A stretch of DNA of 64,000 nt from Candidatus Buchananbacteria bacterium (GTDB taxonomy: Bacteria > Patescibacteriota > Patescibacteriia > Buchananbacterales > UBA6539): contig JABWCG010000002.1 in the NCBI GenBank assembly GCA_013359225.1, positions 113,470-177,469 of the forward strand, read 5' to 3'. Below, piece after piece: positions 4,006 to 59,069 of the stretch. A program made the translations under genes and the position numbers. The stretch's first letter is position 1. Each line of letters starts with the position of its first letter. Under the pieces are notes generated by a model. That model had not been told where the DNA came from. It saw only the letters and a list, made by a program, of their open reading frames with translations, and made no database searches.

Positions 4006-4064
4006 CCTGTTGCTATATCAAAAAGACCCTTCGTGAAAACCAAAGGGTCTTTTTGATTGGACTG

Positions 4065-5196: not shown

Positions 5197-5213
5197 GTAT
5201 GTATAAGACACTT

Positions 5214-5288: not shown

Positions 5289-5299
5289 TCGGTTTGATT

Positions 5300-5340: not shown

Positions 5341-5345
5341 TAAAC

Positions 5346-5378
5346 ATATAAAAAAGCGACAAGCTGGTCAGCTGGTCG
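5346..5378 (-). terminator. Rho-independent terminator at the end of the RlpA-like gene
   Basis: On the minus strand a GCGACCAGCTGACCAGCTTGTCGC hairpin is followed by TTTTTTAT. Confidence 0.45.
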
Positions 5379-30928: not shown

Positions 30929-30954
30929 AACTAATTTGATTTTACGTTAAGGGA

Positions 30955-33900
30955 ATGATCCCGAAAAAATCAAAAATAAAAAAATTAATCTTACCAATCG
31001 TATTTGGTTTGGTTCTTGGCAGCTTTTTAGTTGGTAGTTCAGTTTTGGCGTTAGAAACCGGTCTTGGATACGGCACATTCTCCGGTTTGGGCACCCAGGA
31101 TCTGCGGGTATCGGTCATGAATGTCGTTCGAGCGATACTTGGATTTTTGGGAGTGTTAGCCATCGTGATTATTTTCTACGGCGGCTTTATTTGGATGACC
31201 GCTGGTGGTAATGCGGACCGGATTGCAACGGCTAAAAAGATTTTAACCAACGCTGTAATTGGGTTAGTCATTATCTTTACTTCGTTTGCCATCACTAGTT
31301 TTGTCATTAATCAGCTGATTAATGCGACTGGTGCTGGCGGTGGTGGTATTACTCCGGGTAGTTGTGATGAACCTTCGGATGTTGGTGCAGTGAATGGCTG
31401 TTATGTTTGTACCGATTTTGGCAGTAACTACGGTTGGCAGGTTGATTGCAGCATTAACGGTTGTTGTCCGGGTCCTGCGCAATGCGGCGTGGTAAGCATT
31501 ACACCATCGTCGCCACCAAATCAGCCGATGAACGCGGTGGTGCGAGTTCGGTTTAATCTGCCCACAATTACCGGGGTTGATGAAATCCAGGTTATTGATA
31601 CGACGACCGGAAATCCGGTGGCCGTTAACCGAACGGTTGTTGGCAACGTGGTTGAGATTAGACCCACCGCTTTTTGCGCCGCGCCACAAGATGCTTTGAA
31701 TTGTTTTCCGGCAAACACCACCTTTAACATTGCCATGAATTCCGGATCAATTCAGTGCGGCGGTCAGAACTTGGTGTGTGGTGGTTTTCCGGACCCCTGT
31801 CAGGGCAGTTTTACCACAGGGGATTTTGTAGACATCGCCGGTCCGACGGTTGAGCTGGTTGATCGCCAGATTTGTCAGGGCACAACTAACGAATTGCGGG
31901 CGTTGGTCAATGACGATTATGGTATTGATAACGTTCAATTTTTTGATACAACATACGGTGTTTTGATTAGTACTGATACTAATGTCAGCGTACCACCGGA
32001 AGGTTTTGCTACTGGTAATTGGGACACTTCAACATACGCAATCAATGAGTTTGTGACCGTGGAGGCGCGAGCGTCTGATTATGATAGTCATGTTGCGACT
32101 GATCAGTTGCAATTTACCATTCGCGCCGGTCATTGCTGTAACGCGGTGCAAGATGGCGATGAAACCGGCTTGAATTGTGGTGGTAATGATTGTGAAGCGT
32201 GTAATCCGGTTATTGAGTGGGTGTCGCCGTTAAACGGCGAACAGGGTAACTTGATAACGGTTCATGGCCGTCATTTTGGCGATATCCCCGGAACAGTGAC
32301 TTTTTTGGGCGCACCAAATGACGGTGGTGCCGATAATCAGGATGGACTCAATCCGGCTTCAATTAACCCTCAGTGCAGTAACTATTGGACCGATACGGAA
32401 ATTGTCACTGTTGTTCCTGATGCTCAGGACGGACCAATTATGGTCCGGGCGAACAATGGTACGGTTGACACCACTAATGAGTTGCCGGGCAATACGATTG
32501 CCGATTTTGATCGTAACGATGTTGAGCGCCCCGGTATTTGTACGGTTGTGCCATCCAGTGGCGAGCCCGGTGATGCGGTTGTGATTCATGGTCTGCGCCT
32601 TGATGCTGGCAGTGAAGTATATTTCAGTTCGGTGTTAGCCGGCGGTACCCCGGTTGCTGATGGTTTAATGGTAACTGGCGCCACGGTGCCGAATCTGGAT
32701 CCGGCTCAGGTTGGTCTGCGGGTTAAAAATCAAACCCAGTTTAGTAACCCTAAAACTTTTTCGGTTGGCGACGCCAACGCTCCCGGCCAATTTCAGTGCA
32801 GCAGCGATCAGTTGACGTGTAGTCCGGATCAGTCAAAATGTACGCCGGACAAATTCTGTAATAGTTCTTGTAACTGCGAACCGCGTCAGACCTGTGATAC
32901 TAACACCGGCACACCCAGTTGTGAACCGAGTCAGGGTTTGTGTGATCCTGGGTGGTTTTGTTATAACCCGTTGCCCGATGGAACCCATCAGCCAGATCCA
33001 AACAAGCTTGCTTGTCACTGCTATCAAGCCCAGTTTTGTGACGATCCGACCTTAGCCGCTGATGTTCAAAATCCGGCCTGTCACCCTAATGATGGAGCAT
33101 GTCCGGATAATTATACCTGTGACCCTAATAGTAATTGTACTTGCCAGCCTGTCAGTTCGATTGGTGACGATTCAGCTTACGGCTGGTTTTTCCAGTCGGG
33201 GATTAAGCCGGGATCGTGTAGCAATGAAGCGGGTATTTGTGATCCAAATAGCGCGTTATGTAATAACGGCGAGACATGCAATCCAACGACTTGTAATTGT
33301 GAACCAACCACTCAATTTGCTTGTAGTAGTGACCCTAACGTTTGTAGCCCCGATCCTGATTTGTGTGAAACGGGAACTTTTTGTAATCAAACTTGTCAGT
33401 GTGAAACTCTGGTTCCTTGTGATGCCGATCCAAACAGTCCCAGTTGCGAACCCAGTGCCTGTCCACAGAGTTATTTCTGTTACAGCGCTTCGGTCGGTGA
33501 CCCGGGGTATGATGCGAAAAAATTAGATTGTTATTGTTATCCGGGCATTTTGTGCGACGGAGATATTAGCACGCCGGTTTGTGATCCGGATAACGATTTT
33601 TGTCCAACCGATTATGAATGTAATCCAAACAGCTGTTTTTGTGAGGCTCAGGTAAAGGTTTCAGACAGTTCGACGTATACATGGTTTTTCAATACGACAT
33701 CGTTTGGTCCGCGGGTAGTTGAGAGTTGTAACCGATCAAACACTTGTGACATTGACAGCTATTCCAGTCCGTCACCATATAATGTTTCCGGCACCAGAGC
33801 GGGTGGTTATACGGTGAGTGGTGCTCGACCTGACGACGGTGCGATTCCGGTTGATTCGATTATTACGGCAATGTTTACTACCGAGATGGTTGAAAATTCC

Positions 33901-36900
33901 ATCAACGAAACATCGGTAATCGTCTTGCGATGTAATGAGGCGAGTCAGCCGTTTAATCCGACTAGTTGTGGTGCCCAGCAAATTATTGACGATAACGGCA
34001 TAGACGTTCATGGCTGTGATTATCTTGGTGAGGCGGTAACGTGTTTTGATTTTGAACCTTCGGCCTTGCTAACTAAGAATTATTGGTACCAGGTCACGTT
34101 AAATACGAGTCAAATTTTTGGCACCAATGGTGTCAATTTAATTGGTAACAGTATTGATAATAATTACCGCTGGGTCTTTAAGACGCGTGACAGTGATGAA
34201 CTTAGCCGCGTTGCCTGTGTTTATGTTGAACCGACATATCAAACAGCATACAACTTAGGAGCTGAACATGACTGGAATGCCTATGTGTCACCGGAAGATT
34301 TTGTGTGTGTTTTGATGAATCCGGATCGATCATGCACTTGGGATTGGACAACTTCCGACGGTCGGGCCACGGTGATTGACCAAAACGGCAATGAAGCAAC
34401 AACACAAGCCTTGGCAGAAACACTGCCTGATCCGCCGGTTGACGTGATCGCGAGCTGTACCTTTAGTGACGGCCAGAAAGATGGTGAAGGTAAGCTGACA
34501 ATTGATTTAACCTCGCCATATGTTATTGATAAGTTTCCTGATTGTGGTACGGCGTGTTTGAATGCCAGAATTGGTGCGACGTTCAGTCGGGCGATGGATG
34601 CGGTGAGTGTGACTGACGCAATGACTTTGTATATCTGCTATAACAATCCAAATTGTGAGATTGGTCCCGCCAATGAAGTTACGAGCTTTAGTAAGCCAAC
34701 TGCTCCAGCGCCGGATGAAGCACCAAACACTTTTGTTGGTGACATGCCGTGCTTTGACGTTAATGATGATGGAAAATATGATTATTGTTTGCTGCCCGAT
34801 ACGTATTACCGCGTAGTTATCAACAATACGGCAGTCAGCGCCAATGACAATAAGCCGTTGGCAGGGTTGAATTTTGACGATCCGACGCTTGGTGGTACCG
34901 GCGACCTTGATTCGTATTCTTGGATTTTCAAGACCCAGGCTGATGCCGGTCTTTGTCTGCCGGATCGTATTGATGTTTTCCCACAAGACGAAGTAACACC
35001 GGTTGATACTACTATTAATTATGCCTCGCGTCCCCGCACTGCCGGCGATGCCTGCGATCCGGAATTCGGCCAGCGGTTAAATCCGTATATTTGGAGCTGG
35101 GATTATGATACTAATTTAGTCTCTCGCCAGTTTGATAATCCGTTTTGTAGTGGTTACGAAGTAGCAAACCTTTTGAGTACCGCGCCGCAAAATTATTGTA
35201 CTGAGCGCTTGCCGGGTAGCTTGCGCCAGTCATGCGGCAATAATGTAATTGAAATTGGCGAATCGTGTGACGATGGTAATCTGGTTAATGGTGATGGCTG
35301 TTCGAATTCTTGTTTGCATGAAGGGACAGTGACGCCGACCTGCGGCGATGGCAAAATTGGCGCCGGTGAGGAGTGTGAAACTCCCGGATCAAATTATTGT
35401 GGTGCGGACTGTTTGTGGGTTGGTAATACTGATTATGATTTGGAAGTGTGTGGCAATGGCATTGTTGAGCTTTCTGAAATGTGTGAATATCCAAACACTC
35501 CTGGGTGTGGGGCAACCTGCTTGTTGAGCGGTACTACTGGGGCAGCGATTTGTGGCAACGGCGTAATTGATCGGGGAGAAGAGTGTGATGAAGCCGAGCG
35601 GTTGAATGGTGATGCTCCGTCAAGCGGTGATTATAACGGCGACGGTATCAGTTGTGGCCCGACTTGTTTGATTGAAAATCGTGGTATTGGCGTCTGTCGC
35701 TCAGTTGCCACTAACAAGTTTGATTTTACACAAAACGGTGGCAGCTGTAACACTGGATATGTAGCGGTGCCACTTAATACTGCTACTGGCAACAGTAATG
35801 TTGGTTCGGTTTGCGGCAACCGGATTACCGAGCTTGGTGAACAGTGTGATCTTGGCGGCCGGTGTAGTGATAATAATAAACCTTGTACAGTTAGTAATCT
35901 TTCTAATTGCGCGAATTCGGCGACAGCGACCTGCGAGCCGCGTGATACGTATTGTTTTGACCCAGGCAACGCGACCGATGGTCAAACTTGTCCGACGCCT
36001 GGTTCGGCGTGCGGCACTAGCGGTGTGTGTATTGCCAATACTTGTACTGTTGAGTGTTTAAATGCCGGTTATCCGAGCGGATTTTATTCTGACAATATCA
36101 GTCCATATCAGATTGCTGCAGCCACCAAAGACGGTGAAACATATATCCAGTCATGGATTGGTGGCTATTCGCCGGTGGATACTGGGCCGATGGGCGAGGG
36201 GCATTTGTTGGTTGGTAATGGCGGCGGTAATCAGTTTGTGATCGTTGAACGCTGGCCTGATTGCGGTAGTGCATGTTTGAACGCCGACATTGGCGGACGC
36301 TTCAGTAAGTCGGCAGATCCGAATACGGTTAATGATTTGCAGGCAATTGATTTAGGTGCTGACCGAATTTTCCTCTACGAATGTGGCTTAGACTATAGTT
36401 GTGCAATTGATAGCCTTGAACCGATTGAGGTGAGTGTTGATTCCTATATTGAAGAATATGTTAATGATGCTTTTCGTATCAACCTGCCGCTTTTCTATAA
36501 TTTGATTGATCATGACAACAATCCGTCCACGCCAATGGTGAACGCCTTGTTGCCGAATACTAATTATCGTGTCGTGGTTCGTAATACGGTAACCAGCGCC
36601 GAAGGCTTGGCTTTGACTGGCTTAAATTTTGACGATCCTTATTACGATTACCAAAATCCCGACACTGGCAGCCGTCTTGATTCTCATTCTTGGGTCTTTA
36701 GAACACAAGACACCAGCGAGATTTGCAGTCTGGACAGCGTAAATGTTAATCCGGATGATTATTACTCGGAATCAGATGCCAGTGTGAGGTATAGCTCGGA
36801 GCCACGCAGTGAGCCTGACGTATGTGATCCGCGTTACGGCCAGCGGTTAAATCCGTTTTACTACGATTGGAATTGGGATGATGAAGAGGTGACTGGAAAT

Positions 36901-39900
36901 CCGACACCGCCACCGACCTTCTTGAACTCGGCTGAGTTTGCGTTGCCATTACGCGACGGTTGCGGCAATGCGTTGCTGCAATTTGGCGAGGATTGTGATG
37001 ATGGTAATTTAGATAATGGCGACGGTTGCTCGAGCGTTTGTCTGAACGAAGGAACGACCGCGCCGACTTGTGGTAATAACAAAATTGATCGGGGAGAAGA
37101 GTGTGAGCCGCCAAGTACCGGATATTGTGGTGCCAACTGTTTGCTGATTGGTAATGATAATTATACGCCGATTGCTTTGGGCGGTTATCGACTTGATGAT
37201 GTATGTGGTAATGGCGTGGTTGAGCCAGGTGAGGAGTGTGACGAGGGAACAGAGCCAAACGGCAATGAGGCAGACGGTTGTACGGATTACTGCCGGTATA
37301 CCGGTTCAGTGCCGGCAGCGCTGTCGATTTGTGGCGACGGCCAGATTGGCCTTGGCGAAGAATGTGATGACGCCGATTTTTCAAACGGTTCTCCGGTTGC
37401 TTCCGGCGATGGTTGTAGTGGCACTGATCCAATCGCTGCTTGTACTGGACTGGATCGAACAGCTTGTACGGCATTTCCGGCAGCTAACACCTGTTATTGG
37501 ACTGGTAGTACCTGTAAAACCAGGCCGTGTTTAGTGGAAAATAGAAACGTTGCGATTTGCCGTTCTGACCGTGCGGGCGAGTTTGATTTTAATCAGAGTC
37601 CGGCCGCATGTGAAGATGGTTATGATCCGTATAACCTAACTTCGGTGAGTGGTAATAATAATTTTGAAACTCCAATTTGTGGTAACCGGGTGATTGAAGA
37701 AGGTGAAGAGTGTGATTTGGGTGGCCGGTGTAGCGATAATGGTCGCCGCTGTATTCCAACCGATCTTTCTAATTGTGCAAATCCTAAAACAGCCGTCTGT
37801 GAATTGGCGCTTGGGATTTGTACTTCAGACGGTACAACCTGTACAGTCATTGGCTCAGCTTGCGGTAGTGGCGGAACCTGTTTTTCTACCGGGTGTAGCG
37901 CGGAGTGTTTAAATGCCGGTGCGATTGAAGATTCCTTATTACAAGACACTTTGATTGACCCGTACCAGGTGGTTAACACCCTTTCCGTGCCGACTGTTTT
38001 GGCTGAGGTAAATGAAGAAATTAAAGCGTTTGCGACGATTCAGCCAAATGCCGTTGGCGTTGGGTTGCTGCATGTGGTACCCGGTTCACAGGTTGATTTT
38101 GCGGTTATTGGTCATCAGCCGGCAATTGGTGCCACTAACCAATGTTTGAACGTTGGTATTTGGGCCTTGTTCTCACGGCCATTGAATACGGAAACGCTTA
38201 GCGCCGACAGCATCAGATTGTGTCAGGGAGGCGATTGTAGCTTGGTGAAAAATTATTCATACCGCATTGTTCAGGGTGAATGTGGCGATGACAGTTTCTG
38301 TCATTTCCCAGAACACCTGTCAGATGTTGATAGCTTTGGCGTTTGTCATAACGATTTTGATTGTGTTGGCGGCCAGCTGATCGTTCGAAGCCTTAATACT
38401 GACACGGGCTTTCTTGACCCAAACCAGGATTACGAAGTAAGAGTTGATCAAAACAATTTGCAAGATATTAACGGCATGACGCTAGCCGAAGCAAATACCT
38501 GTAACGGCCAGACTTCGTGTGAGTGGGGCTTTAGTTCCGGCACTGATTTTTGTGAATGTGAATATGTCAGCGTTTCCATCAACCCGACAACTGGTGGCTC
38601 GGAAACCGTTAAAGATTTGTTTACTTGTGCCGGTGATGACTGCGGTTCTGGGACCGTCTCGCCGTTTGACGACGACGCCGCAAACGGCAATCCGGCTACT
38701 GAGCAAAATTTGGCCGGTAACCAGCATTTATATGATACCGTCTGTTATGACATTCATAATAACGAGGGTGGCCGAATTCCGCTTTTGCCGACTGGGTTAC
38801 GGTTTGAGTGGGCGGTATTCCCGAATGACGATTTAATTTATCTCACCGATTCAGACGCAACGGACTTTATTAACGATGCTTCGTTTGTCACGCCGAACAA
38901 TAAGAATGGTGATTCTGATGTCTTTATTACCGCTTATGAATACCATTGCGGTGACGGGCCAAATTTCTGTGATCCACAAAGCGCCGGCGCTTGTGGCGAC
39001 TGTGGCGGCGATAAGGCAGTTAACCAGACGGTCCGGGTTACCAACTTCATGTGTAATAACCCTTGGCCCGGTGTAGAAGTGTTTGAAGATTCTGATACTA
39101 ATTGTGATGACGCTAATAATTGTTATGACACTAATTTCACCATGCTGTATTGTCGTGACCAGGGGCAAGAGGGAGTCCATGACGATTTGCCGCCCCTGTA
39201 TGAAGATCCGTTGGTATTGGGAAATAATCCGGCGTCGCCCGCGATTAAAGATTTTATTTTCACCTTTGCTTCAACCGGTGTTAACCGAACTGTTAATGAC
39301 CGGACGCCAAGCAATAAAACCTGGACCGGCGGGGTGGGCAGTAATTATCAGTTTACCGTTGCTCAAACCGGGAATTACGCCGTAAAAATTGACGGCTACA
39401 ACTATCCGACCCCGGGCTGGGGAAACAGTGCCGACTTGTCGAGTCGCGTTCAGCCAAATCCGGCATTGTTTGATTCAAATGTAAATTATAATGGTTTTAA
39501 TATTGATGTGTATTTGCGGACCGGCACCTGTTCGGCGTCGCCGGCTCAAAAATCCGGTACTGCTGTGTTACTGCCGTATGATGAAACTAACCCCCAAACC
39601 GGTTCGGTGTCGCTAGGCCAGTTAACGGCGGGTGAAACCTACTGCATGGAATTTCGCTGGACTAATGATTGGTGTAAATGTAATCCAGAGTGTCTGGCCT
39701 CTGGCGGTACGCTTGATGATCAGTGTGACGCCAATTTCCATTTCTTGGGTTGGCAGGTTATTTCGGAGAACACTTCCAACGATGCAATTGGTATTCGAGT
39801 TTTGGAAAATCCGCTCCACTTGTCGCCAACAACGTGGTACAGTTCCGGTTTGTGCGGCGGGGTGGCCGAATTTGACAGCCTGTGTTTCAGCGATGCTGAT

Positions 39901-42900
39901 TGTTTGGTGCCAAATGACAACGGGTTGATTGCGTATTATCCGCTTGATGGGGTGGAGGCTGATTACTCCGGAAATGAGTTGGATGGTTTGAAAAACACAA
40001 ACGCTCCGTACCTGCCAGGCAAGTTTGGTCAGGCGGCGAATTTCTCAAGTGCTGATGAGTGGATTGAGGTTGCCAGTAACAGCAAGTTGCAGGTCTCTGG
40101 AGAGTTAACGGTAAGCGCCTGGGTTAATCTTAATGAAGGACTAAGCGGCGCCAACCCTGATGAACGAGGTCTTGGCATTATTGCTTCCGAATATGATTGG
40201 AATAGCGGCGGTGGCACTGAAACCGGCTGGACTTTAGGAGATGACTGGGGATGCAGCAATGCCGCCGGCAGTCCTTGTCCACCCGCCGATCAAATTTACT
40301 TTTCGGTTTTTGGTTCGGGCGGCTCGGTAGTTCGTGCCTATGCTAATAATTTTGCTCAAAACTATCTAGACCAGTGGGTATTAGTAACTGGTGTGTTTAA
40401 GCCTGGGCAGTATGTAAAACTCTATATTAATGGTGAAGAAAAATCGAGTACGGCGACAAATATTTCGTCTATTGTTTATAGCGCTGATACACCGCTACGA
40501 ATTGGTCACCGAGCTGATAATGATTATCAGGGTAACTGGATTGGCCGAATTGATGATGTCAAAATTTACAATCGGGCGCTAAGCGCTTCGGAAATTGCCG
40601 GACTGATGAAGCCAAATGTTTTGGAGTGCGTTTTCAATGTGCCGGCCAGAGGTAACCCGCAGCAAACTATTACTGATAATTATCAGTCGGTCGCTGAAGG
40701 CCGTAGCGTGTATGTTGGTGCCACTAATCGTCGGGCCAATGCGTTATGGTCGGATATTTACTTGATGTCCTATAGCCAGGGTGCGTCAAATAATACCATT
40801 GAAATTTTCAATCGGTTGCTTGATCCGGAACAGCTGACTGGCCGTTGGAGCTTTAATGCAAACGTTTCAAACCATCGGGTTTGTGATATTTATGGCTACT
40901 TTGAAGACACGACTAACATCTGTAGTGGTATTGGCACGTCCAATTTTGATTATTGTTCAACACTAGGAACCCCCGCCGCCTGTAATAATGACGCCGTTAC
41001 GTATGGCTGTTATTGGGATAGCCAGTTTGAAGTTTGTCTGGGTAAGATGTGTGAAGCAATTTATTGTGAAAATGATTTTGAATGTCCGAACTTAAGTTGT
41101 AATGCCAATAAGGAAAAAATTGTTCGCGATGCCGAGCGGTATGGTGACTTGCGTGATTTGCAGCTGGCCTTAAATCGATACGGCCAGACTAAGGGTGGTT
41201 ATCCGACCCTGGGCGGCGGTACCTACGTTCCAAACACGACGTTCTCGCAATGGCCAAGCTGGCAGCAGACGCTTGGAGCGGACTTGGGCGGGCGGCTATA
41301 TGTTGATCCGATTAATCGTTTTGTCGGTTGTTCAGATCATTATTGCGATGATAATGAAAGCGGTACTATTGACTCGGGTGAACGAACATTCTGTTTGGTT
41401 GGTGATGTTGATGCTTGCAGCAGCCGGCCGTACCTTTGTCTGGCGATTGATCCAGATCAGGAAGTAACTTGCTGGGATGAAATTACCAAGCAGTTCAGCT
41501 GCCCGGCTCAAATGTTCTCGTATGCCTATAACGCCATTAACGGCGGTGGTGACTACGCGCTTTATACTTCTTTTGAATATGATCAAATTGGCAGCTGGCG
41601 CAGTTTGCCGGGGTATTTCTGTGATACCAATAATAACGGTTCAATTCAAATCGATCAGGAAACAATCCGCTGTACGGTGAATGCCGACTGTACCAGCGGT
41701 GCCTGTTTGGCTTCAGCGGAAGCGGATTTATATGAATTGCCATTAACATCAACTGATGTTGAGTGTCGTGAATTAAACTTTACTTTGGATGCGGCAACAA
41801 TTAGCGGGGGAGTGAGTCCGGCTGAGTGCGCTGCCCGACGCTGTTATGGCGGTACTAATGATCCGGAAAACGATGAGTGTAATAGCGGAGAGGTAACTGA
41901 ATGTCCGGATTCCGGTCCTGGTACGTATTGTACGGGCGACGCTGATTATGATGGCATTTGTGATGTGGATGTCGGAACCGATAACTGTAATCCGTTCCTG
42001 GATTGTAAAGCTAACCCTCGTGATTGTTATAATCCTGATCAGCGCGATAGCGGAGGTATCCCCGGAAAAGGAGACGTTTGCGACGCGACGTGCGGTGCCG
42101 ACACCGACTCTGATGGTGTTTGCGACAGTTCGGATACTTGCCGCAACGTGTATAATCCGGCCAATGCCAGCTGTCTGGATGGCCATAGCAATCGAACCAA
42201 TGGTCAGTGTGATTATGACCTGGACAACATCGGCGACGCGTGTGACCCGTGTACTGATTTAGACCGTGATGGTTTTTGGGACAAAAATACTCCCGCCAAC
42301 ACCTGTTTGGCCGACAACTGTGCGGTAGGTCTGACCGTTTCAAATGATCGTTTTGGTTATTGCAGTGGTGATTTATCTATTCAGTGTAGTCCGGGCGCGG
42401 CCGGCAATACCATTTGTGCGGGCGCTGGAGCCGGTAGTTGTGTCCAACAGACTGGTAGTCTGGCTACTTATAATCCGTACCAGGAAGATTATGACGGAGA
42501 CGGCGTGGGATATATTTGTGATTTTTGTATTGATTTTGACGGCGATAGTCATGGTGATTATCCGTTTTATACCAGTTCAATGTTCGTGACAACCTTAACT
42601 CCTAACCAGCAGCAACATTTTAGTAGTTGTACTTCCGGCACGGCTTGGCCGGGCAACCCGGGAAATATTAATGACATTGACAACTGTCCGGGCGGACCGT
42701 TTGGTGCTGAATGTACAGATGAGTTCGGCATTGAAGTTTCTTGTTATAACCCCAGCGGCACGGCTTGGGAAGACCTGAATGGCACAAGCCACACCGGACA
42801 AAAAGATTTTAACCTAGATGGTATTGGTGACATTTGTGATGAATTTCGTGTTGGACTGGTTAATTGTGGCGACGGTATTACCGACCCGGGAGGCGGGGAA

Positions 42901-45900
42901 GCGTGTGACTGTGGTAAGTATGCCCTAACTTCCGATCCCTCAAGCCCGATTGTCTGCAGTACGATTAACGACCAACCCTGCAATCCCGGATATGATTCCA
43001 ATGTTGGCAATGGTTTGAATAATTGTAATTGGTGTTACCGCTGTCAGGAAGTAAAGAATGAAGAGGCGGGATATTGTGGTGATGATATCGTTCAGGCGCC
43101 TCAGGAAAACTGTGAACGTGGCAACGCTGGTTGTGATAATTCCTGCCAAAATTTTGAGCCGGCGGAATATTGTGACGCCAATGGGTATGATTCGGAAGTT
43201 ATTCATTTTAATTCGCCCACCGGCCAAACTTCTCATAATTTCTTAAATACCACTCCGGTTTACTTTTATATTCCGGAATGTAGTATCACTAACAGCACAG
43301 AGGTTAGTTTTGATATTGATATTACCGGCTCATTGCCGGATACGGGTATTGTTTTTGTAACAGATGTTTCCGGCAGTATGGCCGGCACCCGAATTACTGA
43401 CGCCAAGGCAGCAATAATTAATACTATTAATGATTTTGCTGCTACCGCCTTTGCCGGTAAAATTCATATTGGTTTGGTGAGCTATTCCACTGATAAAAGC
43501 CTTGATTCACCATTGGTGAAGGTTGATAACCCCACTAATGTCCAAAACTTGATCGCTAAAGTCAACGCATATGATGCCGTTGGCGGTACTGAACCGGATA
43601 AAGCAGTTCAGGAAGCAACTACAATGTTAGGCAGTTTTACCGGTAATCGTATTATGATTTTTATGACGGACGGTGATTCTCATTATACTTATGGTAATTA
43701 TGGTCCAGGTGAACCAGTCTGTTATGGCAGCCTTGATCACGGTAGTAACTGTCACGTAGTGCCAGTCTGTGAACATACGTGTGCGTATACTTGTAATGGC
43801 TCTGCTTGCCAGGAGTGCACAGCGACAAATATTTGGGGAGCCTGTACTACTTGGACAAATCGTTCGGGAACCTGCTGTCCTGATTGTCCCGGTAGTGTAG
43901 CGTATGAATTTACCTGTTCAGCCGCAAGTGTTTGTACTGGCTGTATTGCGAGCTCATCTAGTTTTACAAATGATTCTGATATTGCCAAGGGCGCACCTTA
44001 TAATATTGTTATTTATGGCGCGGCTTTTACGGGAGGCACTCAGACCGCTAACCCCACAGAAGTGAATTTAACTTCTTCTAACTGTCTTGGTGGTTCATGC
44101 AGTTCGAATTTCTGTAATAGTGGGTATTGTTTTGGTGAAGGTGGTTTAACTTTTGAAGATATTTATGGTGCAATTTATGATCAGATTGTTGAGGAGTTGG
44201 GGTATAGTTTTTCCGTTCTGGTTGATGGTGTTATGACAACTCCGATTGATTTGCCATATCAATCGCCCACGGGCGGTAGCTATCCGAATCAAACTATTGA
44301 TTTACCAAGTAACATTTGTACCAGCGGCACGGTTAATCCGTCTTATCCTGATTTTGGCCAACACACCTTGCAATTGGTTGGGCTGCCAAGCGGCATTCAA
44401 GCCAGTTTTAGCGGCGCGGCGGTGAATTATTGTACGACGTGTGATGAAGATAATGACGGCGTGATGGACGCGTCTTGCGGCGGCGCTGACTGTAATCCGG
44501 CGAACGCTAATATTCCGGTTGCGGAGTTAATTGCCGCCGGTAACTGTACTGACAATATTGATAATGACTGTGATGGCACTAAAGACGGAGCGGATATCGG
44601 GTGTGTTGATCCCGGAGGTGGGGGAACAATCCAAGAAGGAATTGGCAACTGTGCTGACGGCATTGATAATGATGTTGATTCCCGAACTGACTGCGCTGAT
44701 CCTGAATGTGTCGGAAAGCCCGGCCCTAACGGTGTGACTTGTTGCCAGGTGGGAACTGATTGTTCAACTTACGGCACGGGGCAATGTAACGCCTGTTCTA
44801 ACAATGTTTGTGTTGCGGTAACGGCCATTAATGGCAGTAATTGCGAAGGTACTTGCAGTTTTTGTAGCAATGGTACTTGTGTTAATCGCGAAACAGGTGA
44901 CGGTCGCGAATGTCCGGCCGGTTGGGCCTGTACTGGTCCGGCGGCAACAGCATACTGCTCGCCAAATGTTTCAGCTGAAAATTGCAGCCAAGCCGGCGAT
45001 GAAGACGGTGATGGTTTGGCCGATTGTGCGGACGTTGACGATTGTGACGGCCATACTGCGCCGGATGGCGGCATTTGTTGTACTGATAGTTTTGACTGTG
45101 GTGGTACGTGTCAGACTTGTTCGCCCACTGCTAAGCGGTGTGTACCTTATACCGGATTAAACGGTGGTCTGTGTTCTGGCGCCTGTACATATTGTAGTAA
45201 CGGCAGCTGCGTTGCCCGAACTAATGGCGACGGGCTTGAATGTCCGGTTGGTACTGTTTGTTCTGGTATGAGTTGTGTTGATCCGGGCGCTTCCAATGAT
45301 TGTACGGTGCCATCCTCAAAAGTTTGCCCATTCCAGCAGGGTGTTTGTAGTGGTTCGCGGGAAAATTGTGTGGCGCCGGGTGTCTGGCCGGGCTGTGATT
45401 ATCAAACATATGTAAACCATGCCGCCTCAACCGGCAAAACATATGAGGCTGGATTTGAATCACTTTGTACGGACGGTCAGGATAATGATTGTGACGGGCA
45501 GACTGACAGTGCCGATTCTGATTGTGGCGCGGTTTGTAACGATAATGGCACTTGCGACGGAGCGGAGAACTGTTCTAACTGTCCGGATGAATGTGCTTGT
45601 CTGCCGGGACAGTTGTGCTGTGGCGCGGCGACGTATAGCTGCGAAGTTCCGGATTGTAATGCTAATATTGATTGTAACGACAGCAACGCATCAACAATTG
45701 ATGTCTGCCAGGGTGCGGCGACTTGTAATGCAACTTGTATTCATACGCCGATTACGGCTTGTAGTAATGGGGACGGGTACTGTCCGGCCGGTTGTACGGC
45801 GTCTAATGATACTGACTGTGCTCCGGTCGCCGCATGTCAGGATACGGATGGCGGCAGCACGGTGTATACCACCCAGGGAACGGTTAGTGACGGCGTTGGC

Positions 45901-48225
45901 GGTGCCGTATTTGCGCCAAGAACTGATTCGTGTTCCGGCAATGTTTTAACGGAATATGGCTGTAACGGTGCCAACTTTACTTCATCAACCTATAATTGTG
46001 CCAGCGTTGCAAATACTATTTGTAGCAATGGTGCCTGTGTTTTACAGGCGGGAGTTAATAGCTGCAGCGACTCTGACGGCGGCGCTAACTATACGACGAT
46101 TGGCACGGTTTCCGGACAAGTTGATAGTGCAAACTATACTCATACTGATCAATGTGCCAGCGGCACCACTTTAACTGAATGGACTTGCAGTGGCACTCAG
46201 GCCGTTTCTTCGTCGCCAGCTTTTGACTGTACGACGCTTGGTGCCGGCTATACCTGTAGCAACGGCCGTTGTATTGCTCCGCCGCCAGTTTTTGTAAATT
46301 ACTATTGTAATACCGACGGTGACAGCGCGGTCAGCAGTTCGGTAACGATTAACTGCCAGCAGGGCACTGTTAATTGTCCGCCGGCCGGTCAGGGCTGTGT
46401 GACCGCACCAGGCACTGATTGTAATGATTCTAATTCTCAAATCTATCCAGGCGCCCCGGAGACTGCCTGCAATGGTGTTAATAATGACTGTGACGCTCAA
46501 ACCGATGAAGATTATGCTGTTATTTCCGGTCCAACGTGTGGTGTTGGCGCCTGCCAGACCACTGGCCAGCTCGTTTGCCAGAGCGGTACGATTACGGATA
46601 CTTGTACGCCCTTGCCGCCTTCAACTGAAGTGTGCGGTGACAGCGTCGACAACGATTGTAACGGAATCGTTGATAATGGTTGTATAAACGAGTGCACTCC
46701 GGGAGAACAAATTTCGTGCGGCGCTTTGGATCCAGTAAACTACAAGGGCGTTTGCGCTGCTCCAACAATTACCTGTAACGCTTTAGGCGCCTGGCCGCGA
46801 ACTGAATGTACGGCCCAAAAGAAAACCAGTGAAGTCGGTTTTTGTACGGATAATTTAGATAATGATTGTGATGGTTTTGCTGACTGTCAGGAAACCACTG
46901 ATTGTCCGGCGGGTAACGTTTGTTCCGGCAACTGTTTAGCTGGTGCGACGTGTAATGTTAGCGCCGGACCGACACAGTTTGACTGGATTTGTAATGCTCA
47001 GCCAGCGGCTTTTTGCGGCGGCACTGGCACGGCGTGCGGCTTGTGTGTTGAGGTTTCAGCTGGTAATTTCCAGTGCCAATCAAACGCTTCGGCCTGTAGT
47101 GGCGGTGCTGGGTATTGTGGTGTCTGTCAAGATCAGGGTGGCGGCGTGAATTTCAGCTGTGCACCAAACAATAATGCCTGTACGGCAGTTTGTACAACTT
47201 GTAGCAGCTCAACATTGTCGTGTGTTACTGTGGTGAATAATCAAGATACTGACGGCGCAAACCAGTGTCATGATACGGTTGGCTGCTCCGGTACGTCGTG
47301 CTCATGTAGCGTTGCCGGCGTTTGCCAAAACTGTGAAGATAATGATCATGACGGTTTATGTAATGAAATTGATGTTTGTCCGTATGATCCGGATAATGAC
47401 TTGGACAATGACGGTCTGTGTGCAGTTGGTTGTTTTAGTGGCCCGTCTCGTTTTGGCTCGCTAACCAACGGGTATATTTGTGATGCGGCCGCGTCCAATG
47501 TGTTACGCGACACTTGCCAGGGCGGCAGCAATCAGGACAGTGGCGGCTTGGGTGGCGTGCCGGACGACTGTGAGATCAATAGCTGCAAGGTGGTATTTGG
47601 CGCTCAAGACTACCTAAATATTTATATCAATGGTAAACTGGTTACTGGTAATTTATCTTTGCCGCAATATGTAAGCGGCAACCCGCCGGCGGATGTGATT
47701 GACAACGTGTTTGTCAGCCTTGATGATTATATTGCGTCCGGTGAAAACGTTATTGCAATTGAAGCTTACGTCGAAAAAGCCCGCGGTTCATATCCAGATT
47801 ACGCTCAGGCATATCGTCAGATTAGGGGAGCGTTTGCCAAGGTGACTGATCCGAGCTGTACTACCACCGGCTGTGGTTTATGTGATGCGTCCAGTTTAAG
47901 CGGCACGGCTTTAAGGACCGATCCGGTTTCCGGCAGTACGAATACTCCGGATATGCCGCTGAAATGTTTAGTGGTAAATGATACTACTAGTCCGGCGCCG
48001 ACAAACTGGAACAAGGTTGGTTTTAGCGAATCCGGCTGGTCTGATAGCGCAAACGGTTCAGCGCAAATTACTAATCCGTTCCAAGAAATTGAAGAGCGGC
48101 TCTGGAGTTCAGCCTACTATAGCAGCGTAACCAGTCCGCGCTACAACAGTCCGAAAGCGGTTTGGGCGGGCGGTAATTATACTTCAACTAGCAAGATTTA
48201 CTGTCGCTATACTTTCATTAAATAA
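30955..48225 (+). CDS. Giant (5756 aa) multidomain surface adhesin-like protein with a TrbC/VirB2-like N-terminal pilin/anchor module. It also has IPT/TIG-like Ig domains, Myxococcus-type cysteine-rich repeats (two clusters), a LamG/ConA-like lectin domain, thrombospondin type-3 Ca-binding repeats, a VWA domain with MIDAS, and many MopE-like 'CxDxxDNDCDGxxD' metal-binding motifs.
   Basis: A single 17,271-nt ORF has no stop codons. I recognise these motifs directly:
- CxxxCGDGxxxxxEECDDGNxxxGDGCSxxC repeats at about 35233-35700 and 36958-37560
- LamG-like 'LIAYYPLDG...KLYINGEEK...DDVKIYNRALSASEI' at about 39925-40610
- TSP3 'NPDQRDSGGIPGKGDVCD', 'DYDGDGVGYICD' and related repeats at about 41930-42850
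- VWA 'IVFVTDVSGSMAG...MIFMTDGDS' at about 43330-43690
- MopE-like motifs scattered across 44400-46900. Confidence 0.7.
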   Translation: MIPKKSKIKKLILPIVFGLVLGSFLVGSSVLALETGLGYGTFSGLGTQDLRVSVMNVVRAILGFLGVLAIVIIFYGGFIWMTAGGNADRIATAKKILTNAVIGLVIIFTSFAITSFVINQLINATGAGGGGITPGSCDEPSDVGAVNGCYVCTDFGSNYGWQVDCSINGCCPGPAQCGVVSITPSSPPNQPMNAVVRVRFNLPTITGVDEIQVIDTTTGNPVAVNRTVVGNVVEIRPTAFCAAPQDALNCFPANTTFNIAMNSGSIQCGGQNLVCGGFPDPCQGSFTTGDFVDIAGPTVELVDRQICQGTTNELRALVNDDYGIDNVQFFDTTYGVLISTDTNVSVPPEGFATGNWDTSTYAINEFVTVEARASDYDSHVATDQLQFTIRAGHCCNAVQDGDETGLNCGGNDCEACNPVIEWVSPLNGEQGNLITVHGRHFGDIPGTVTFLGAPNDGGADNQDGLNPASINPQCSNYWTDTEIVTVVPDAQDGPIMVRANNGTVDTTNELPGNTIADFDRNDVERPGICTVVPSSGEPGDAVVIHGLRLDAGSEVYFSSVLAGGTPVADGLMVTGATVPNLDPAQVGLRVKNQTQFSNPKTFSVGDANAPGQFQCSSDQLTCSPDQSKCTPDKFCNSSCNCEPRQTCDTNTGTPSCEPSQGLCDPGWFCYNPLPDGTHQPDPNKLACHCYQAQFCDDPTLAADVQNPACHPNDGACPDNYTCDPNSNCTCQPVSSIGDDSAYGWFFQSGIKPGSCSNEAGICDPNSALCNNGETCNPTTCNCEPTTQFACSSDPNVCSPDPDLCETGTFCNQTCQCETLVPCDADPNSPSCEPSACPQSYFCYSASVGDPGYDAKKLDCYCYPGILCDGDISTPVCDPDNDFCPTDYECNPNSCFCEAQVKVSDSSTYTWFFNTTSFGPRVVESCNRSNTCDIDSYSSPSPYNVSGTRAGGYTVSGARPDDGAIPVDSIITAMFTTEMVENSINETSVIVLRCNEASQPFNPTSCGAQQIIDDNGIDVHGCDYLGEAVTCFDFEPSALLTKNYWYQVTLNTSQIFGTNGVNLIGNSIDNNYRWVFKTRDSDELSRVACVYVEPTYQTAYNLGAEHDWNAYVSPEDFVCVLMNPDRSCTWDWTTSDGRATVIDQNGNEATTQALAETLPDPPVDVIASCTFSDGQKDGEGKLTIDLTSPYVIDKFPDCGTACLNARIGATFSRAMDAVSVTDAMTLYICYNNPNCEIGPANEVTSFSKPTAPAPDEAPNTFVGDMPCFDVNDDGKYDYCLLPDTYYRVVINNTAVSANDNKPLAGLNFDDPTLGGTGDLDSYSWIFKTQADAGLCLPDRIDVFPQDEVTPVDTTINYASRPRTAGDACDPEFGQRLNPYIWSWDYDTNLVSRQFDNPFCSGYEVANLLSTAPQNYCTERLPGSLRQSCGNNVIEIGESCDDGNLVNGDGCSNSCLHEGTVTPTCGDGKIGAGEECETPGSNYCGADCLWVGNTDYDLEVCGNGIVELSEMCEYPNTPGCGATCLLSGTTGAAICGNGVIDRGEECDEAERLNGDAPSSGDYNGDGISCGPTCLIENRGIGVCRSVATNKFDFTQNGGSCNTGYVAVPLNTATGNSNVGSVCGNRITELGEQCDLGGRCSDNNKPCTVSNLSNCANSATATCEPRDTYCFDPGNATDGQTCPTPGSACGTSGVCIANTCTVECLNAGYPSGFYSDNISPYQIAAATKDGETYIQSWIGGYSPVDTGPMGEGHLLVGNGGGNQFVIVERWPDCGSACLNADIGGRFSKSADPNTVNDLQAIDLGADRIFLYECGLDYSCAIDSLEPIEVSVDSYIEEYVNDAFRINLPLFYNLIDHDNNPSTPMVNALLPNTNYRVVVRNTVTSAEGLALTGLNFDDPYYDYQNPDTGSRLDSHSWVFRTQDTSEICSLDSVNVNPDDYYSESDASVRYSSEPRSEPDVCDPRYGQRLNPFYYDWNWDDEEVTGNPTPPPTFLNSAEFALPLRDGCGNALLQFGEDCDDGNLDNGDGCSSVCLNEGTTAPTCGNNKIDRGEECEPPSTGYCGANCLLIGNDNYTPIALGGYRLDDVCGNGVVEPGEECDEGTEPNGNEADGCTDYCRYTGSVPAALSICGDGQIGLGEECDDADFSNGSPVASGDGCSGTDPIAACTGLDRTACTAFPAANTCYWTGSTCKTRPCLVENRNVAICRSDRAGEFDFNQSPAACEDGYDPYNLTSVSGNNNFETPICGNRVIEEGEECDLGGRCSDNGRRCIPTDLSNCANPKTAVCELALGICTSDGTTCTVIGSACGSGGTCFSTGCSAECLNAGAIEDSLLQDTLIDPYQVVNTLSVPTVLAEVNEEIKAFATIQPNAVGVGLLHVVPGSQVDFAVIGHQPAIGATNQCLNVGIWALFSRPLNTETLSADSIRLCQGGDCSLVKNYSYRIVQGECGDDSFCHFPEHLSDVDSFGVCHNDFDCVGGQLIVRSLNTDTGFLDPNQDYEVRVDQNNLQDINGMTLAEANTCNGQTSCEWGFSSGTDFCECEYVSVSINPTTGGSETVKDLFTCAGDDCGSGTVSPFDDDAANGNPATEQNLAGNQHLYDTVCYDIHNNEGGRIPLLPTGLRFEWAVFPNDDLIYLTDSDATDFINDASFVTPNNKNGDSDVFITAYEYHCGDGPNFCDPQSAGACGDCGGDKAVNQTVRVTNFMCNNPWPGVEVFEDSDTNCDDANNCYDTNFTMLYCRDQGQEGVHDDLPPLYEDPLVLGNNPASPAIKDFIFTFASTGVNRTVNDRTPSNKTWTGGVGSNYQFTVAQTGNYAVKIDGYNYPTPGWGNSADLSSRVQPNPALFDSNVNYNGFNIDVYLRTGTCSASPAQKSGTAVLLPYDETNPQTGSVSLGQLTAGETYCMEFRWTNDWCKCNPECLASGGTLDDQCDANFHFLGWQVISENTSNDAIGIRVLENPLHLSPTTWYSSGLCGGVAEFDSLCFSDADCLVPNDNGLIAYYPLDGVEADYSGNELDGLKNTNAPYLPGKFGQAANFSSADEWIEVASNSKLQVSGELTVSAWVNLNEGLSGANPDERGLGIIASEYDWNSGGGTETGWTLGDDWGCSNAAGSPCPPADQIYFSVFGSGGSVVRAYANNFAQNYLDQWVLVTGVFKPGQYVKLYINGEEKSSTATNISSIVYSADTPLRIGHRADNDYQGNWIGRIDDVKIYNRALSASEIAGLMKPNVLECVFNVPARGNPQQTITDNYQSVAEGRSVYVGATNRRANALWSDIYLMSYSQGASNNTIEIFNRLLDPEQLTGRWSFNANVSNHRVCDIYGYFEDTTNICSGIGTSNFDYCSTLGTPAACNNDAVTYGCYWDSQFEVCLGKMCEAIYCENDFECPNLSCNANKEKIVRDAERYGDLRDLQLALNRYGQTKGGYPTLGGGTYVPNTTFSQWPSWQQTLGADLGGRLYVDPINRFVGCSDHYCDDNESGTIDSGERTFCLVGDVDACSSRPYLCLAIDPDQEVTCWDEITKQFSCPAQMFSYAYNAINGGGDYALYTSFEYDQIGSWRSLPGYFCDTNNNGSIQIDQETIRCTVNADCTSGACLASAEADLYELPLTSTDVECRELNFTLDAATISGGVSPAECAARRCYGGTNDPENDECNSGEVTECPDSGPGTYCTGDADYDGICDVDVGTDNCNPFLDCKANPRDCYNPDQRDSGGIPGKGDVCDATCGADTDSDGVCDSSDTCRNVYNPANASCLDGHSNRTNGQCDYDLDNIGDACDPCTDLDRDGFWDKNTPANTCLADNCAVGLTVSNDRFGYCSGDLSIQCSPGAAGNTICAGAGAGSCVQQTGSLATYNPYQEDYDGDGVGYICDFCIDFDGDSHGDYPFYTSSMFVTTLTPNQQQHFSSCTSGTAWPGNPGNINDIDNCPGGPFGAECTDEFGIEVSCYNPSGTAWEDLNGTSHTGQKDFNLDGIGDICDEFRVGLVNCGDGITDPGGGEACDCGKYALTSDPSSPIVCSTINDQPCNPGYDSNVGNGLNNCNWCYRCQEVKNEEAGYCGDDIVQAPQENCERGNAGCDNSCQNFEPAEYCDANGYDSEVIHFNSPTGQTSHNFLNTTPVYFYIPECSITNSTEVSFDIDITGSLPDTGIVFVTDVSGSMAGTRITDAKAAIINTINDFAATAFAGKIHIGLVSYSTDKSLDSPLVKVDNPTNVQNLIAKVNAYDAVGGTEPDKAVQEATTMLGSFTGNRIMIFMTDGDSHYTYGNYGPGEPVCYGSLDHGSNCHVVPVCEHTCAYTCNGSACQECTATNIWGACTTWTNRSGTCCPDCPGSVAYEFTCSAASVCTGCIASSSSFTNDSDIAKGAPYNIVIYGAAFTGGTQTANPTEVNLTSSNCLGGSCSSNFCNSGYCFGEGGLTFEDIYGAIYDQIVEELGYSFSVLVDGVMTTPIDLPYQSPTGGSYPNQTIDLPSNICTSGTVNPSYPDFGQHTLQLVGLPSGIQASFSGAAVNYCTTCDEDNDGVMDASCGGADCNPANANIPVAELIAAGNCTDNIDNDCDGTKDGADIGCVDPGGGGTIQEGIGNCADGIDNDVDSRTDCADPECVGKPGPNGVTCCQVGTDCSTYGTGQCNACSNNVCVAVTAINGSNCEGTCSFCSNGTCVNRETGDGRECPAGWACTGPAATAYCSPNVSAENCSQAGDEDGDGLADCADVDDCDGHTAPDGGICCTDSFDCGGTCQTCSPTAKRCVPYTGLNGGLCSGACTYCSNGSCVARTNGDGLECPVGTVCSGMSCVDPGASNDCTVPSSKVCPFQQGVCSGSRENCVAPGVWPGCDYQTYVNHAASTGKTYEAGFESLCTDGQDNDCDGQTDSADSDCGAVCNDNGTCDGAENCSNCPDECACLPGQLCCGAATYSCEVPDCNANIDCNDSNASTIDVCQGAATCNATCIHTPITACSNGDGYCPAGCTASNDTDCAPVAACQDTDGGSTVYTTQGTVSDGVGGAVFAPRTDSCSGNVLTEYGCNGANFTSSTYNCASVANTICSNGACVLQAGVNSCSDSDGGANYTTIGTVSGQVDSANYTHTDQCASGTTLTEWTCSGTQAVSSSPAFDCTTLGAGYTCSNGRCIAPPPVFVNYYCNTDGDSAVSSSVTINCQQGTVNCPPAGQGCVTAPGTDCNDSNSQIYPGAPETACNGVNNDCDAQTDEDYAVISGPTCGVGACQTTGQLVCQSGTITDTCTPLPPSTEVCGDSVDNDCNGIVDNGCINECTPGEQISCGALDPVNYKGVCAAPTITCNALGAWPRTECTAQKKTSEVGFCTDNLDNDCDGFADCQETTDCPAGNVCSGNCLAGATCNVSAGPTQFDWICNAQPAAFCGGTGTACGLCVEVSAGNFQCQSNASACSGGAGYCGVCQDQGGGVNFSCAPNNNACTAVCTTCSSSTLSCVTVVNNQDTDGANQCHDTVGCSGTSCSCSVAGVCQNCEDNDHDGLCNEIDVCPYDPDNDLDNDGLCAVGCFSGPSRFGSLTNGYICDAAASNVLRDTCQGGSNQDSGGLGGVPDDCEINSCKVVFGAQDYLNIYINGKLVTGNLSLPQYVSGNPPADVIDNVFVSLDDYIASGENVIAIEAYVEKARGSYPDYAQAYRQIRGAFAKVTDPSCTTTGCGLCDASSLSGTALRTDPVSGSTNTPDMPLKCLVVNDTTSPAPTNWNKVGFSESGWSDSANGSAQITNPFQEIEERLWSSAYYSSVTSPRYNSPKAVWAGGNYTSTSKIYCRYTFIK
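34531..37922 (+). repeat. Diverged internal tandem duplication inside the giant gene: two ~1.6 kb units (34531-36066 and 36247-37922)
   Basis: Protein segments align between the units:
- FPDCGTACLNARIGATFSRAMD / WPDCGSACLNADIGGRFSKSAD
- LPDTYYRVVINNTAVSAN...SYSWIFKTQ / LPNTNYRVVVRNTVTSAE...SHSWVFRTQ
- CDPEFGQRLNPYIW / CDPRYGQRLNPFYY
- both end in ...TVECLNAGY / ...SAECLNAGA. Confidence 0.7.
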
Positions 48226-58110: not shown

Positions 58111-58113
58111 ATT

Positions 58114-58593: not shown

Positions 58594-58624
58594 TTTTTAA
58601 GAAATAATTCTTAGCCATAATCAT

Positions 58625-59056: not shown

Positions 59057-59069
59057 TAACTCATATACT

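Follow-up and report, generated by a model that had tools for sequence, protein, structure and literature searches.

A VirB2-like pilin module fused to a giant predicted surface adhesin in Candidatus Buchananbacteria and related Patescibacteria

The stretch of DNA analysed here, called the window below, comprises 64,000 nucleotides from a Candidatus Buchananbacteria bacterium (GenBank assembly GCA_013359225.1, contig JABWCG010000002.1, positions 113,470 to 177,469 of the forward strand) and contains an open reading frame (ORF) for a protein of 5756 residues, referred to as the giant. The analysis suggested, at roughly even confidence, that the giant is a 'modular VirB2-type pilin', that is, a giant acidic, disulfide-rich, Ca2+-binding surface adhesin carried on an intact VirB2-like pilin module of the kind used by type IV secretion systems (T4SSs). 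From its predicted domains and topology, the giant is very likely a surface-exposed adhesin held by a pilin hairpin, and participation of its module in pilin polymerisation or in a T4SS is possible, a little short of an even chance.

The initial annotation of this DNA had read the first ~120 residues of the giant as a VirB2/TrbC-like pilin, a reading that held up in both profile searches and alignments. The PF18895 (T4SS_pilin) model matched residues 55-117 with 37.0 bits, above its gathering cut-off of 26.6, over profile positions 10-71 of 71. The model that had been proposed for the check, PF04956 (TrbC/VirB2), gave no match to the giant at E<0.01, and precomputed PF04956 matches are found on many close free pilins. 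Similarity to NF045849, the Mbov_0395 pilin-like family of small proteins from integrative and conjugative elements and T4SSs of monoderms, was significant (E=2.6e-8, 33.4 bits) and under the equivalog cut-off of 40; by profile similarity, the giant and its upstream paralogue described below are homologous to this family and are not equivalogs of it. A protein search with residues 1-135 of the giant against 5.8 billion proteins returned 268 matches. The best 120 of these, several of them named 'pilin', were without exception Patescibacteria proteins of small size (80-235 aa) with at most 66% identity (E=5e-45 at best), which confirmed that the module normally stands alone.

The module of the giant is 52-66% identical to the stand-alone pilins. 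In the alignment it retains all the invariant residues of the pilin family (G77, G85, G103 and F116) and all the near-invariant ones, as well as the loop motif GGFxWMTAGGN, whose IWMTAGG part occupies residues 79-85; the loop region reads AGGNADRIATAKK. Its layout, a short exposed N-terminal segment, a helix at residues 50-82, a four-residue loop followed by the basic ADRIATAKK, and a helix at 87-125, is that of PF18895 pilins, which consist of a signal peptide and two hydrophobic helices with a short basic loop. AlphaFold2 (AF2) modelling from a 52-sequence alignment returned the same hairpin (helices 50-82 and 87-125 joined by a four-residue loop) with a pLDDT of 90-95. Judged by these sequence features, the module is a true VirB2-like pilin homologue.

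Both ends of the module also correspond to those of free pilins. A basic n-region (MIPKKSKIKK) and a hydrophobic core precede an ...A-x-A|LETGL motif that aligns with stand-alone pilins, and the predicted site of signal peptidase I, VLA|LE after A32, is a probable one. Free pilins terminate at '...ATGA(T/V)', the point at which the giant runs on into the Gly-rich 'GAGGGGITPGSC'; orthologues carry Gly runs of up to more than 13 residues at this linker position. The alignment thus places the fusion point exactly at the natural pilin C-terminus. Hydropathy analysis located hydrophobic segments only at residues 7-35, 50-85 and 95-123 of the entire protein.

The module is also the part of the protein under the strongest constraint. 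In 28 orthologues, residues 33-126 were 49-73% identical to those of the window's protein, compared with 21-57% for the extracellular regions. Among the related loci that were fetched, the ~310-residue internal domain at residues 3233-3545 was kept in 51, far above the laminin G-like (LamG) domain (3 loci), the VWA domain (2 loci) and the C-terminal domain (0 loci), figures that are low partly because the fetched flanks end at 10 kb. These comparisons suggest a conserved base and one conserved internal domain with a variable or swappable distal part, the pattern expected of an organelle for partner recognition. Conservation this strong suggests that pilin-type contacts of the module, with free pilins, with the paralogue or with T4SS parts, have been retained, and the module is probably more than a passive anchor.

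The giant gene runs from an ATG at 30955 to a stop codon at 48223-48225 on the plus strand without interruption, as had been annotated, and it is real; the probability of an open run of 5756 codons by chance is negligible, at ~(61/64)^5756. The ATG is supported by the N-termini of orthologues (MFSEKGKIKK..., MLLKLKTKK...). At this start (window 30949-30957), the sole Shine-Dalgarno-like element, AAGGGA, stops one base ahead of the ATG; canonical spacing would need more. An identical NCBI record exists (NUM25725.1, from a 188.5-kb contig), entitled 'VWA domain-containing protein [Candidatus Buchananbacteria bacterium]', a generic name under which the giant is at present under-annotated. The GC content of the giant and its paralogue (window 30000-48000) is 46-50%, and that of most of the window is 40-44%. 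Because synteny is conserved, this rise is probably due to a protein composition rich in Gly, Ala, Cys, Asp and Pro and not to gene transfer.

The features of the giant and of its immediate neighbours are collected in Table 1. The domains listed in the initial annotation were largely recovered: IPT/TIG, Myxococcus Cys-rich, LamG, VWA with a metal-ion-dependent adhesion site (MIDAS) and MopE-like matches were all found, and the TSP3 match stayed just under its cut-off. The two ~600-residue duplicated modules contain Big_5-like starts and acidic, Cys-rich DUF4215 / myxo_disulf_rpt repeats, for which matches of 44-56 bits were obtained in the giant. The protein is extremely Cys-rich (~7%), and residues 3601-3800 include 41 Asp and Glu. 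Its VWA domain was identified both by the hidden Markov model match and by the DxSxS metal-site motif. All the internal repeats are old, with 23-46% identity.

Table 1. Features of the giant gene, its product and its neighbours, with positions in the window
Feature	Positions	Strand	Evidence or remarks
Signal peptidase I, housekeeping LepB type	25175..25789	+	TIGR02227 133 bits vs cutoff 47
Upstream paralogue, 958 aa; pilin module, Big_5 and unrelated C-terminal part	28052..30928	+	NUM25724.1 'TrbC/VirB2 family protein'
Giant ORF	30955..48225	+	5756 aa, 606 kDa, pI 4.05, 406 Cys
Sec-type signal peptide (predicted), aa 1-32	30955..31050	+	Hydropathy; AF2 helix 7-32; stand-alone pilin alignment
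VirB2-like pilin module, aa 33-126	31051..31332	+	PF18895, NF045849, pilin alignment, AF2
Gly-rich linker GAGGGGITP, aa 127-135	31333..31359	+	Alignment; begins at stand-alone pilin end
IPT/TIG Ig-like domains, two stretches from aa 418	32206..32754	+	PF01833 40 bits vs gathering cut-off 20.9
Diverged Cys-rich repeats, aa ~605-935	32767..33759	+	Internal repeats, 28-39% identity
Big_5 bacterial Ig-like domain, aa 953-1077	33811..34185	+	PF13205 63.8 bits
Ancient tandem duplication of a ~600-aa module, aa 1190-1793 / 1763-2416	34522..38202	+	Copies 35-46% identical
Laminin_G_3 / ConA-like lectin domain, aa 3034-3215	40054..40599	+	PF13385 73 bits
Family hallmark internal domain, aa 3233-3545 (~310 aa)	40651..41589	+	Conserved in 51 fetched loci
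Acidic TSP3-like Ca-binding repeat region, aa ~3640-4000	41872..42954	+	PF02412 22.3 bits, below gathering cut-off 25
VWA domain with MIDAS motif DVSGS (aa 4137)	43348..43686	+	PF00092 42.6 bits vs gathering cut-off 23.8
Cys-rich MopE-like repeat stalk, aa ~4450-5530	44302..47544	+	PF11617 (Cu-binding_MopE) 42 bits, 3 stretches; repeats 23-33% identity
C-terminal domain, last ~216-226 aa, membrane-distal	47545..48222	+	Rare, lineage-specific
Downstream single-pass membrane protein with TSP3_bac repeat, 234 aa	48244..48948	+	PF18884 39 bits; transmembrane segment 72-101
Second downstream single-pass TSP3_bac membrane protein, 328 aa	48980..49966	+	PF18884 31 bits; transmembrane segment 39-71

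The internal domain at residues 3233-3545, the hallmark of the family, had no match in Pfam, NCBIfam or PDB profile searches, and its AF2 model, made from a two-sequence alignment, was unusable (pLDDT 30). Its 'RDAERYGDLRDLQLALNRYG..GYP' stretch is one that we take to recall the shaft of type IV pilins, and 'KEKIVRDAERYGDLRDLQLALNRYGQTKGGYP...WPSW...DPIN' presumably recalls the shaft and head of type IV pilins or pseudopilins. No T2SSG or pilin Pfam match was found in the domain, and no prepilin genes were found in any fetched locus. The C-terminal domain, without a Pfam or NCBIfam match, is rare: a search of 1.84 billion representatives found just 12 homologues, in each case at the C-terminus of a protein, and one of these proteins is the 6217-aa orthologue P0180. 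A sortase-type C-terminus (LPxTG, hydrophobic segment and basic tail) was not found in the giant, which has no hydrophobic segment past residue 123. The single LPDTG is internal, at residues 4127-4131 (window 43333-43347) directly ahead of the VWA domain, and is unlikely to be a sortase signal because no hydrophobic segment follows it.

Two orthologues of comparable size were identified. One, of 6360 aa, lies on an independently assembled 922-kb contig (JGI Ga0376277_0000023 = JBAZSB010000001.1) and has T4SS_pilin, LamG and VWA domains; its first 3311 residues align collinearly with the giant (38-44% identity). The gene order of that contig is the same as in the window: Mur ligase, DprA, Pth, Der, LytR | GDPD, S26 peptidase, HisRS, S21, YqeY, a 1047-aa pilin-Big_5 gene and the gene of the 6360-aa orthologue. 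The other, P0180, has the pilin module at its start and the rare C-terminal domain of the giant at its end. Of the 5756 residues of the giant, 4468 align with it in one collinear chain at 33-45% identity; the sole region replaced in P0180 corresponds to residues ~3900-5165, which hold the VWA domain and Cys-rich repeats. Another Buchananbacteria contig has the same arrangement up to the point where it ends. A homologue search with the central region of the giant returned one 1920-aa fragment only and missed the full-length orthologues.

The giant had been presented as what would be a novel surface architecture; the family data show that it is not a one-off. A scan of GTDB species representatives found 128 relatives in ABY1-type Patescibacteria, from which 78 distinct loci were retained with flanks fetched up to 10 kb, and in NCBI, proteins of this kind already go by 'TrbC/VirB2 family protein' or 'pilin'. 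The hosts of the 78 loci are Buchananbacteria, Magasanikiibacteriota, Falkowbacteria, Uhrbacteria and many metagenome-assembled genomes (MAGs) titled 'uncultured Gammaproteobacteria'. Pilin-fused ORFs of at least 2000 aa are present in at least 49 of the 78 loci: 36 are complete at 2000-4130 aa, and 13 more of at least 2000 aa run off the fetched sequence. A separate search with residues 1-620 of the giant found 48 proteins of 372-1075 aa that combine PF18895 with Big_5 or TIG, many of them ended by contig edges.

The locus has a conserved order, namely S26 peptidase, HisRS, YqeY, a ~950-aa pilin-Big_5 paralogue, the giant and TSP3 membrane proteins. Signal peptidase I (60 of the 78 loci), HisRS (57), YqeY (56) and LytR (32) recur as neighbours, and most loci hold a pilin-Big_5 paralogue of ~600-1100 aa together with the giant. 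The paralogue in the window scored 33.0 bits with PF18895, 43 with Big_5, 27.3 with PF04956 (gathering cut-off 27.9) and 38.1 with NF045849 (E=8.8e-10); it has only the pilin module in common with the giant, at 62.6% identity over 107 aa. TSP3_bac single-pass membrane proteins occur downstream in 32 of the 78 loci (63 copies), and because this family recurs in 32 related loci, the two in the window are probably functional partners of the giant. Both have Asn/Thr-rich low-complexity spacers and the bacterial TSP3 Ca-binding repeat. The gaps between the genes of this locus in the window (26, 18, 31 and 14 nt) are short and without predicted terminators in any of them, so that the unit looks like an operon. 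The neighbouring signal peptidase I is the probable enzyme for removal of the pilin signal peptide, and this link may be one of conserved gene order only. A TraF-like pilin-processing peptidase was considered for the same S26 enzyme and rejected, since the TraF model gave 36 bits against 100.

The same synteny and a Patescibacteria-type locus were observed in MAGs titled 'uncultured Gammaproteobacteria bacterium' (binchicken / SRP co-assemblies; L016, L017, L027, L033, L036, L041, L044 and others), and for this reason their titles are probably wrong. The labels of P0124 (Chlamydiae) and P0098 (Rhodospirillales) are likewise probably wrong.

The proposed working of the giant can be given in four steps. 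The protein would be targeted by the Sec pathway and cut by signal peptidase I after VLA32. Both pilin helices would then enter the membrane as a hairpin whose basic loop, ADRIATAKK, faces the cytoplasm, as it does in VirB2/TraA; by topology and the positive-inside rule, the C-terminus and ~5630 residues would be left outside the cell. The basic loop of F-pilin is cytoplasmic, and both its N- and C-termini are exposed on the outside of the pilus (PMC7555446). The stalk of TIG, Big_5, Cys-rich DUF4215/MopE-like and TSP3-like repeats would fold outside with disulfides and Ca2+, and would present the LamG, VWA/MIDAS and rare C-terminal domains to a partner cell. These domains were detected in the sequence, and their binding to a partner is predicted from them; that distal domains vary or are swapped between orthologues is as expected for partner recognition. 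Finally, the module would dock the adhesin into an assembly of the genome's free VirB2-like pilins, either a T4SS-associated pilus or a membrane pool of pilins, and the adjacent 958-aa pilin-Big_5 paralogue would probably take part in docking. Such docking would resemble the display of vWA or lectin modules on type IV pili by modular type IV pilins. In its widest form, offered only tentatively, the proposal is that in ABY1 Patescibacteria a T4SS-associated pilin assembly serves as a platform that presents adhesins of 0.3-0.65 MDa to the host cell, and that VirB2-type modular pilins have evolved there. More boldly still, the neighbouring pair of fused pilins might build a filament or stalk base of their own without a T4SS.

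Several observations weigh against a working connection of the giant with pilin polymers or with a T4SS. A T4SS-related apparatus had been suggested as a possibility, with VirB4, VirB6 and VirD4 as the homologues to look for, and no support for it came from the gene context: neither these three nor VirB3 are encoded in the 64-kb window, whose genes are of housekeeping types (such as ParA/ParB, RelA/SpoT, TopA, DprA, Der, LytR, HisRS, YbeY, FtsA/FtsZ, ribonucleotide reductase and release factor), and no T4SS gene or ATPase family recurs in the 10-kb flanks of the 78 related loci. The link is consequently drawn from module homology. In the related 922-kb genome, no virB4 was found within 10 kb of the free pilin array, and for Patescibacteria T4SSs PMC12857230 describes the pilus only as 'potential', with none seen for any. 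A cargo of 600 kDa per subunit is sterically incompatible with a homopolymer, so that only sparse or tip incorporation is conceivable. As to the module itself, its helices are short and hydrophobic and its identity to pilins stems partly from limited composition, and fold searches gave no specific pilin match. Structural similarity, which had been put forward as a test, was uninformative because fold comparison cannot distinguish a pilin from any other helical hairpin.

Other observations bear on the surroundings of pilin genes. A search for T4SS genes past the window returned only Logan contigs of 1.5-2.3 kb. The related 922-kb genome has two free pilins in a small array ~200 kb from its giant locus. 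This array (L006 / L008, Ga0376277_0000023, ~825-846 kb) consists of a pilin of 119 aa, a membrane protein of 224 aa and a pilin of 141 aa. The proteins encoded on its flanks have 742 aa, with a weak EccB-like match, and 313 aa, with a weak dockerin match. According to a survey, VirB2-like pilins occur in 1948 Patescibacteria assemblies with VirB4, the pilin gene being near virB4 in only 1135, and T4SS loci of ABY1 genomes are located with comF, recG and radA (PMC12102498). In Southlakia epibionticum, the T4SS and its pilin array are essential (PMC10633639). A plasmid protein search with the module gave two weak matches (E 0.4-0.8), not significant alone, both annotated as pilins. A Pontibacillus plasmid carries a pilin-like gene of the Mbov_0395 family at ~4 kb from that of a VirB4-like ATPase, a pair that ties the wider pilin family to monoderm T4SSs, with a BLAST link to the window that is weak (E=0.8).

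The same data can be explained if the VirB2-like hairpin was co-opted as an N-terminal two-helix membrane anchor that acts independently of any T4SS, the giant being a constitutive fibrillar adhesin or envelope component in the cytoplasmic membrane. Taken by itself this is somewhat improbable, and it is almost as likely as a role in pilin contacts. It would account for the housekeeping neighbourhood free of T4SS genes in the window and the 78 loci and for the position near the envelope and division genes LytR, signal peptidase and FtsA/FtsZ; that fused modules group mostly together, apart from free pilins, and that the module fold is a generic hairpin are also consistent with it. However, no other part of the protein is as conserved as the module, which has every family-invariant residue and GGFxWMTAGGN in place, a constraint beyond the needs of a lipid anchor, and the fused modules of the related 922-kb genome are still 52-63% identical to its own free pilins.

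A less probable explanation, which we consider unlikely, is that the module is an export or insertion leader cut at the Gly linker, to give a normal pilin and a giant that is released or associated with the wall. The junction exactly at the natural pilin C-terminus, the flexible Gly linker and the S26 peptidase gene three genes upstream (60 of the 78 loci) would suit such a carrier. There is also an analogy with TrbC of IncP, a VirB2-family pilin with a C-terminal extension of ~30 residues that is removed, with the involvement of the S26-type TraF. However, the extension of the giant is of 5630 residues, the S26 enzyme encoded nearby is not TraF but a signal peptidase I of the common LepB type, the linkers vary and show no conserved motif for cleavage, and domain searches detected no wall-binding or other retention domain in the stalk.

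That the giant is an S-layer-like or structural lattice protein of the envelope and not an adhesin for partner cells is very unlikely. Its Big_5 and TIG Ig-like domains, acidic Ca-binding composition and constitutive-looking chromosomal context could be so interpreted, but a lattice protein is usually much smaller than the giant and conserved, orthologues of the giant have the distal domains (LamG, VWA and C-terminal) swapped or absent, and VWA/MIDAS and lectin domains point to ligand binding. An assembly chimera or a pseudogene read-through joining a pilin gene to downstream genes, conceivable from the extreme length of the ORF in a metagenome-assembled genome and from its internal repeats, can be dismissed, since these repeats are too diverged to be of the near-identical type that misleads assemblers, the collinear 6360- and 6217-aa orthologues, with the same N- and C-terminal domains, come from independent assemblies, and pilin-fused ORFs of at least 2000 aa are present in no fewer than 49 further loci.

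The kinds of components combined in the giant, namely Patescibacterial VirB2-like pilins, modular pilins and giant adhesins, are known. The nearest relatives of its residues 33-126 are the VirB2-like T4SS pilins of the same phylum (PF18895; the essential Southlakia epibionticum array; PMC10633639, PMC12102498). These pilins are free-standing at 107-235 aa and often arrayed near virB4, whereas the module of the giant carries ~5630 extra residues and lies in a housekeeping locus free of T4SS genes. No mention of pilin-adhesin fusions was found in the passages searched of PMC10633639, PMC12102498 and PMC12857230, and searches of the T4SS and Patescibacteria literature and other full-text searches found no description of a pilin combined with a giant adhesin. 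The sequences of the family are public and generically annotated.

The closest parallel in design is provided by the modular type IV pilins PilB (vWA) and PilC (ConA-like lectin) of Streptococcus sanguinis (PMC8179133, PMC9934059), which follow the same plan of a pilin module, a linker and grafted adhesion modules. The giant shares both of their adhesion module types, VWA/MIDAS and LamG/ConA-like lectin, with many more stalk domains in between. However, type IV pilins have a class III signal peptide and the type IV pilin fold, whereas the giant has a Sec signal peptide and a VirB2 hairpin and so belongs to an unrelated pilin class; the prepilin motif G|F-T-L-x-E was not found in any ORF of the window or the loci. 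The largest modular type IV pilin cited in PMC8179133 has 860 aa, compared with 5756 aa for the giant, which is an analogue and not a member of the modular type IV pilins.

In size, the giant belongs with SiiE of Salmonella (5559 aa; PMC6272769) and a 7651-aa adhesin of Mobiluncus mulieris (PMC10619420), with which it also has in common an Ig-like repeat stalk, an acidic Ca2+-binding character and the position of largest protein of the proteome. SiiE is exported by a type I secretion system (T1SS) (PMC6272769), whereas the device of the giant is N-terminal, a Sec signal and a pilin hairpin. No T1SS genes were found in the 64-kb window; for a C-terminal T1SS signal, the libraries searched include no dedicated model. 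Omnitrophota, which are ultra-small bacteria of a different phylum and depend on hosts, likewise have giant genes for very large surface proteins of many domains (bioRxiv 10.1101/2023.11.21.568195; PMC10066038), and the sole mention of 'pilin' in the Omnitrophota paper does not concern a pilin module at the start of a giant protein.

Two further observations concern other genes of the window. Three genes at 56314-59609 encode a 598-aa protein with a prenyltransferase/terpene-cyclase alpha-alpha toroid and DUF4430, a DUF4430 protein, and a membrane protein resembling DUF6580 / the S-component of ECF transporters. We take the toroid and DUF4430 combination to resemble cobalamin binders of the transcobalamin type, and the cluster may be a vitamin-scavenging system. 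At 53087-55465, the large subunit of ribonucleotide reductase has a C-terminal TSCPD domain and a terminal Zn-ribbon.

The family offers a testable handle on the attachment of Patescibacteria to their hosts and on the function of the essential T4SS, as adhesion domains of the lectin and VWA types are here physically joined to a pilin module, which is conserved at a single chromosomal site throughout a class. The giant gene takes up ~2% of a genome of ~0.9 Mb, judged by the related 922-kb contig, a heavy cost that implies strong selection. If the module stays outside the polymer, a conjugative pilin would have been re-used as a general anchor for surface proteins. If the module enters a pilin polymer, the principle of the 'modular pilin' would extend from type IV pili to pili of the conjugative type. 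Adhesins such as PrgB were reported as not detected in the Patescibacteria dataset surveyed in PMC12102498; if a T4SS-associated pilin assembly is indeed the platform for the giants, they would fill this gap in Patescibacteria T4SSs, and the T4SS pilus of these monoderms would be an attachment organelle for episymbiosis.

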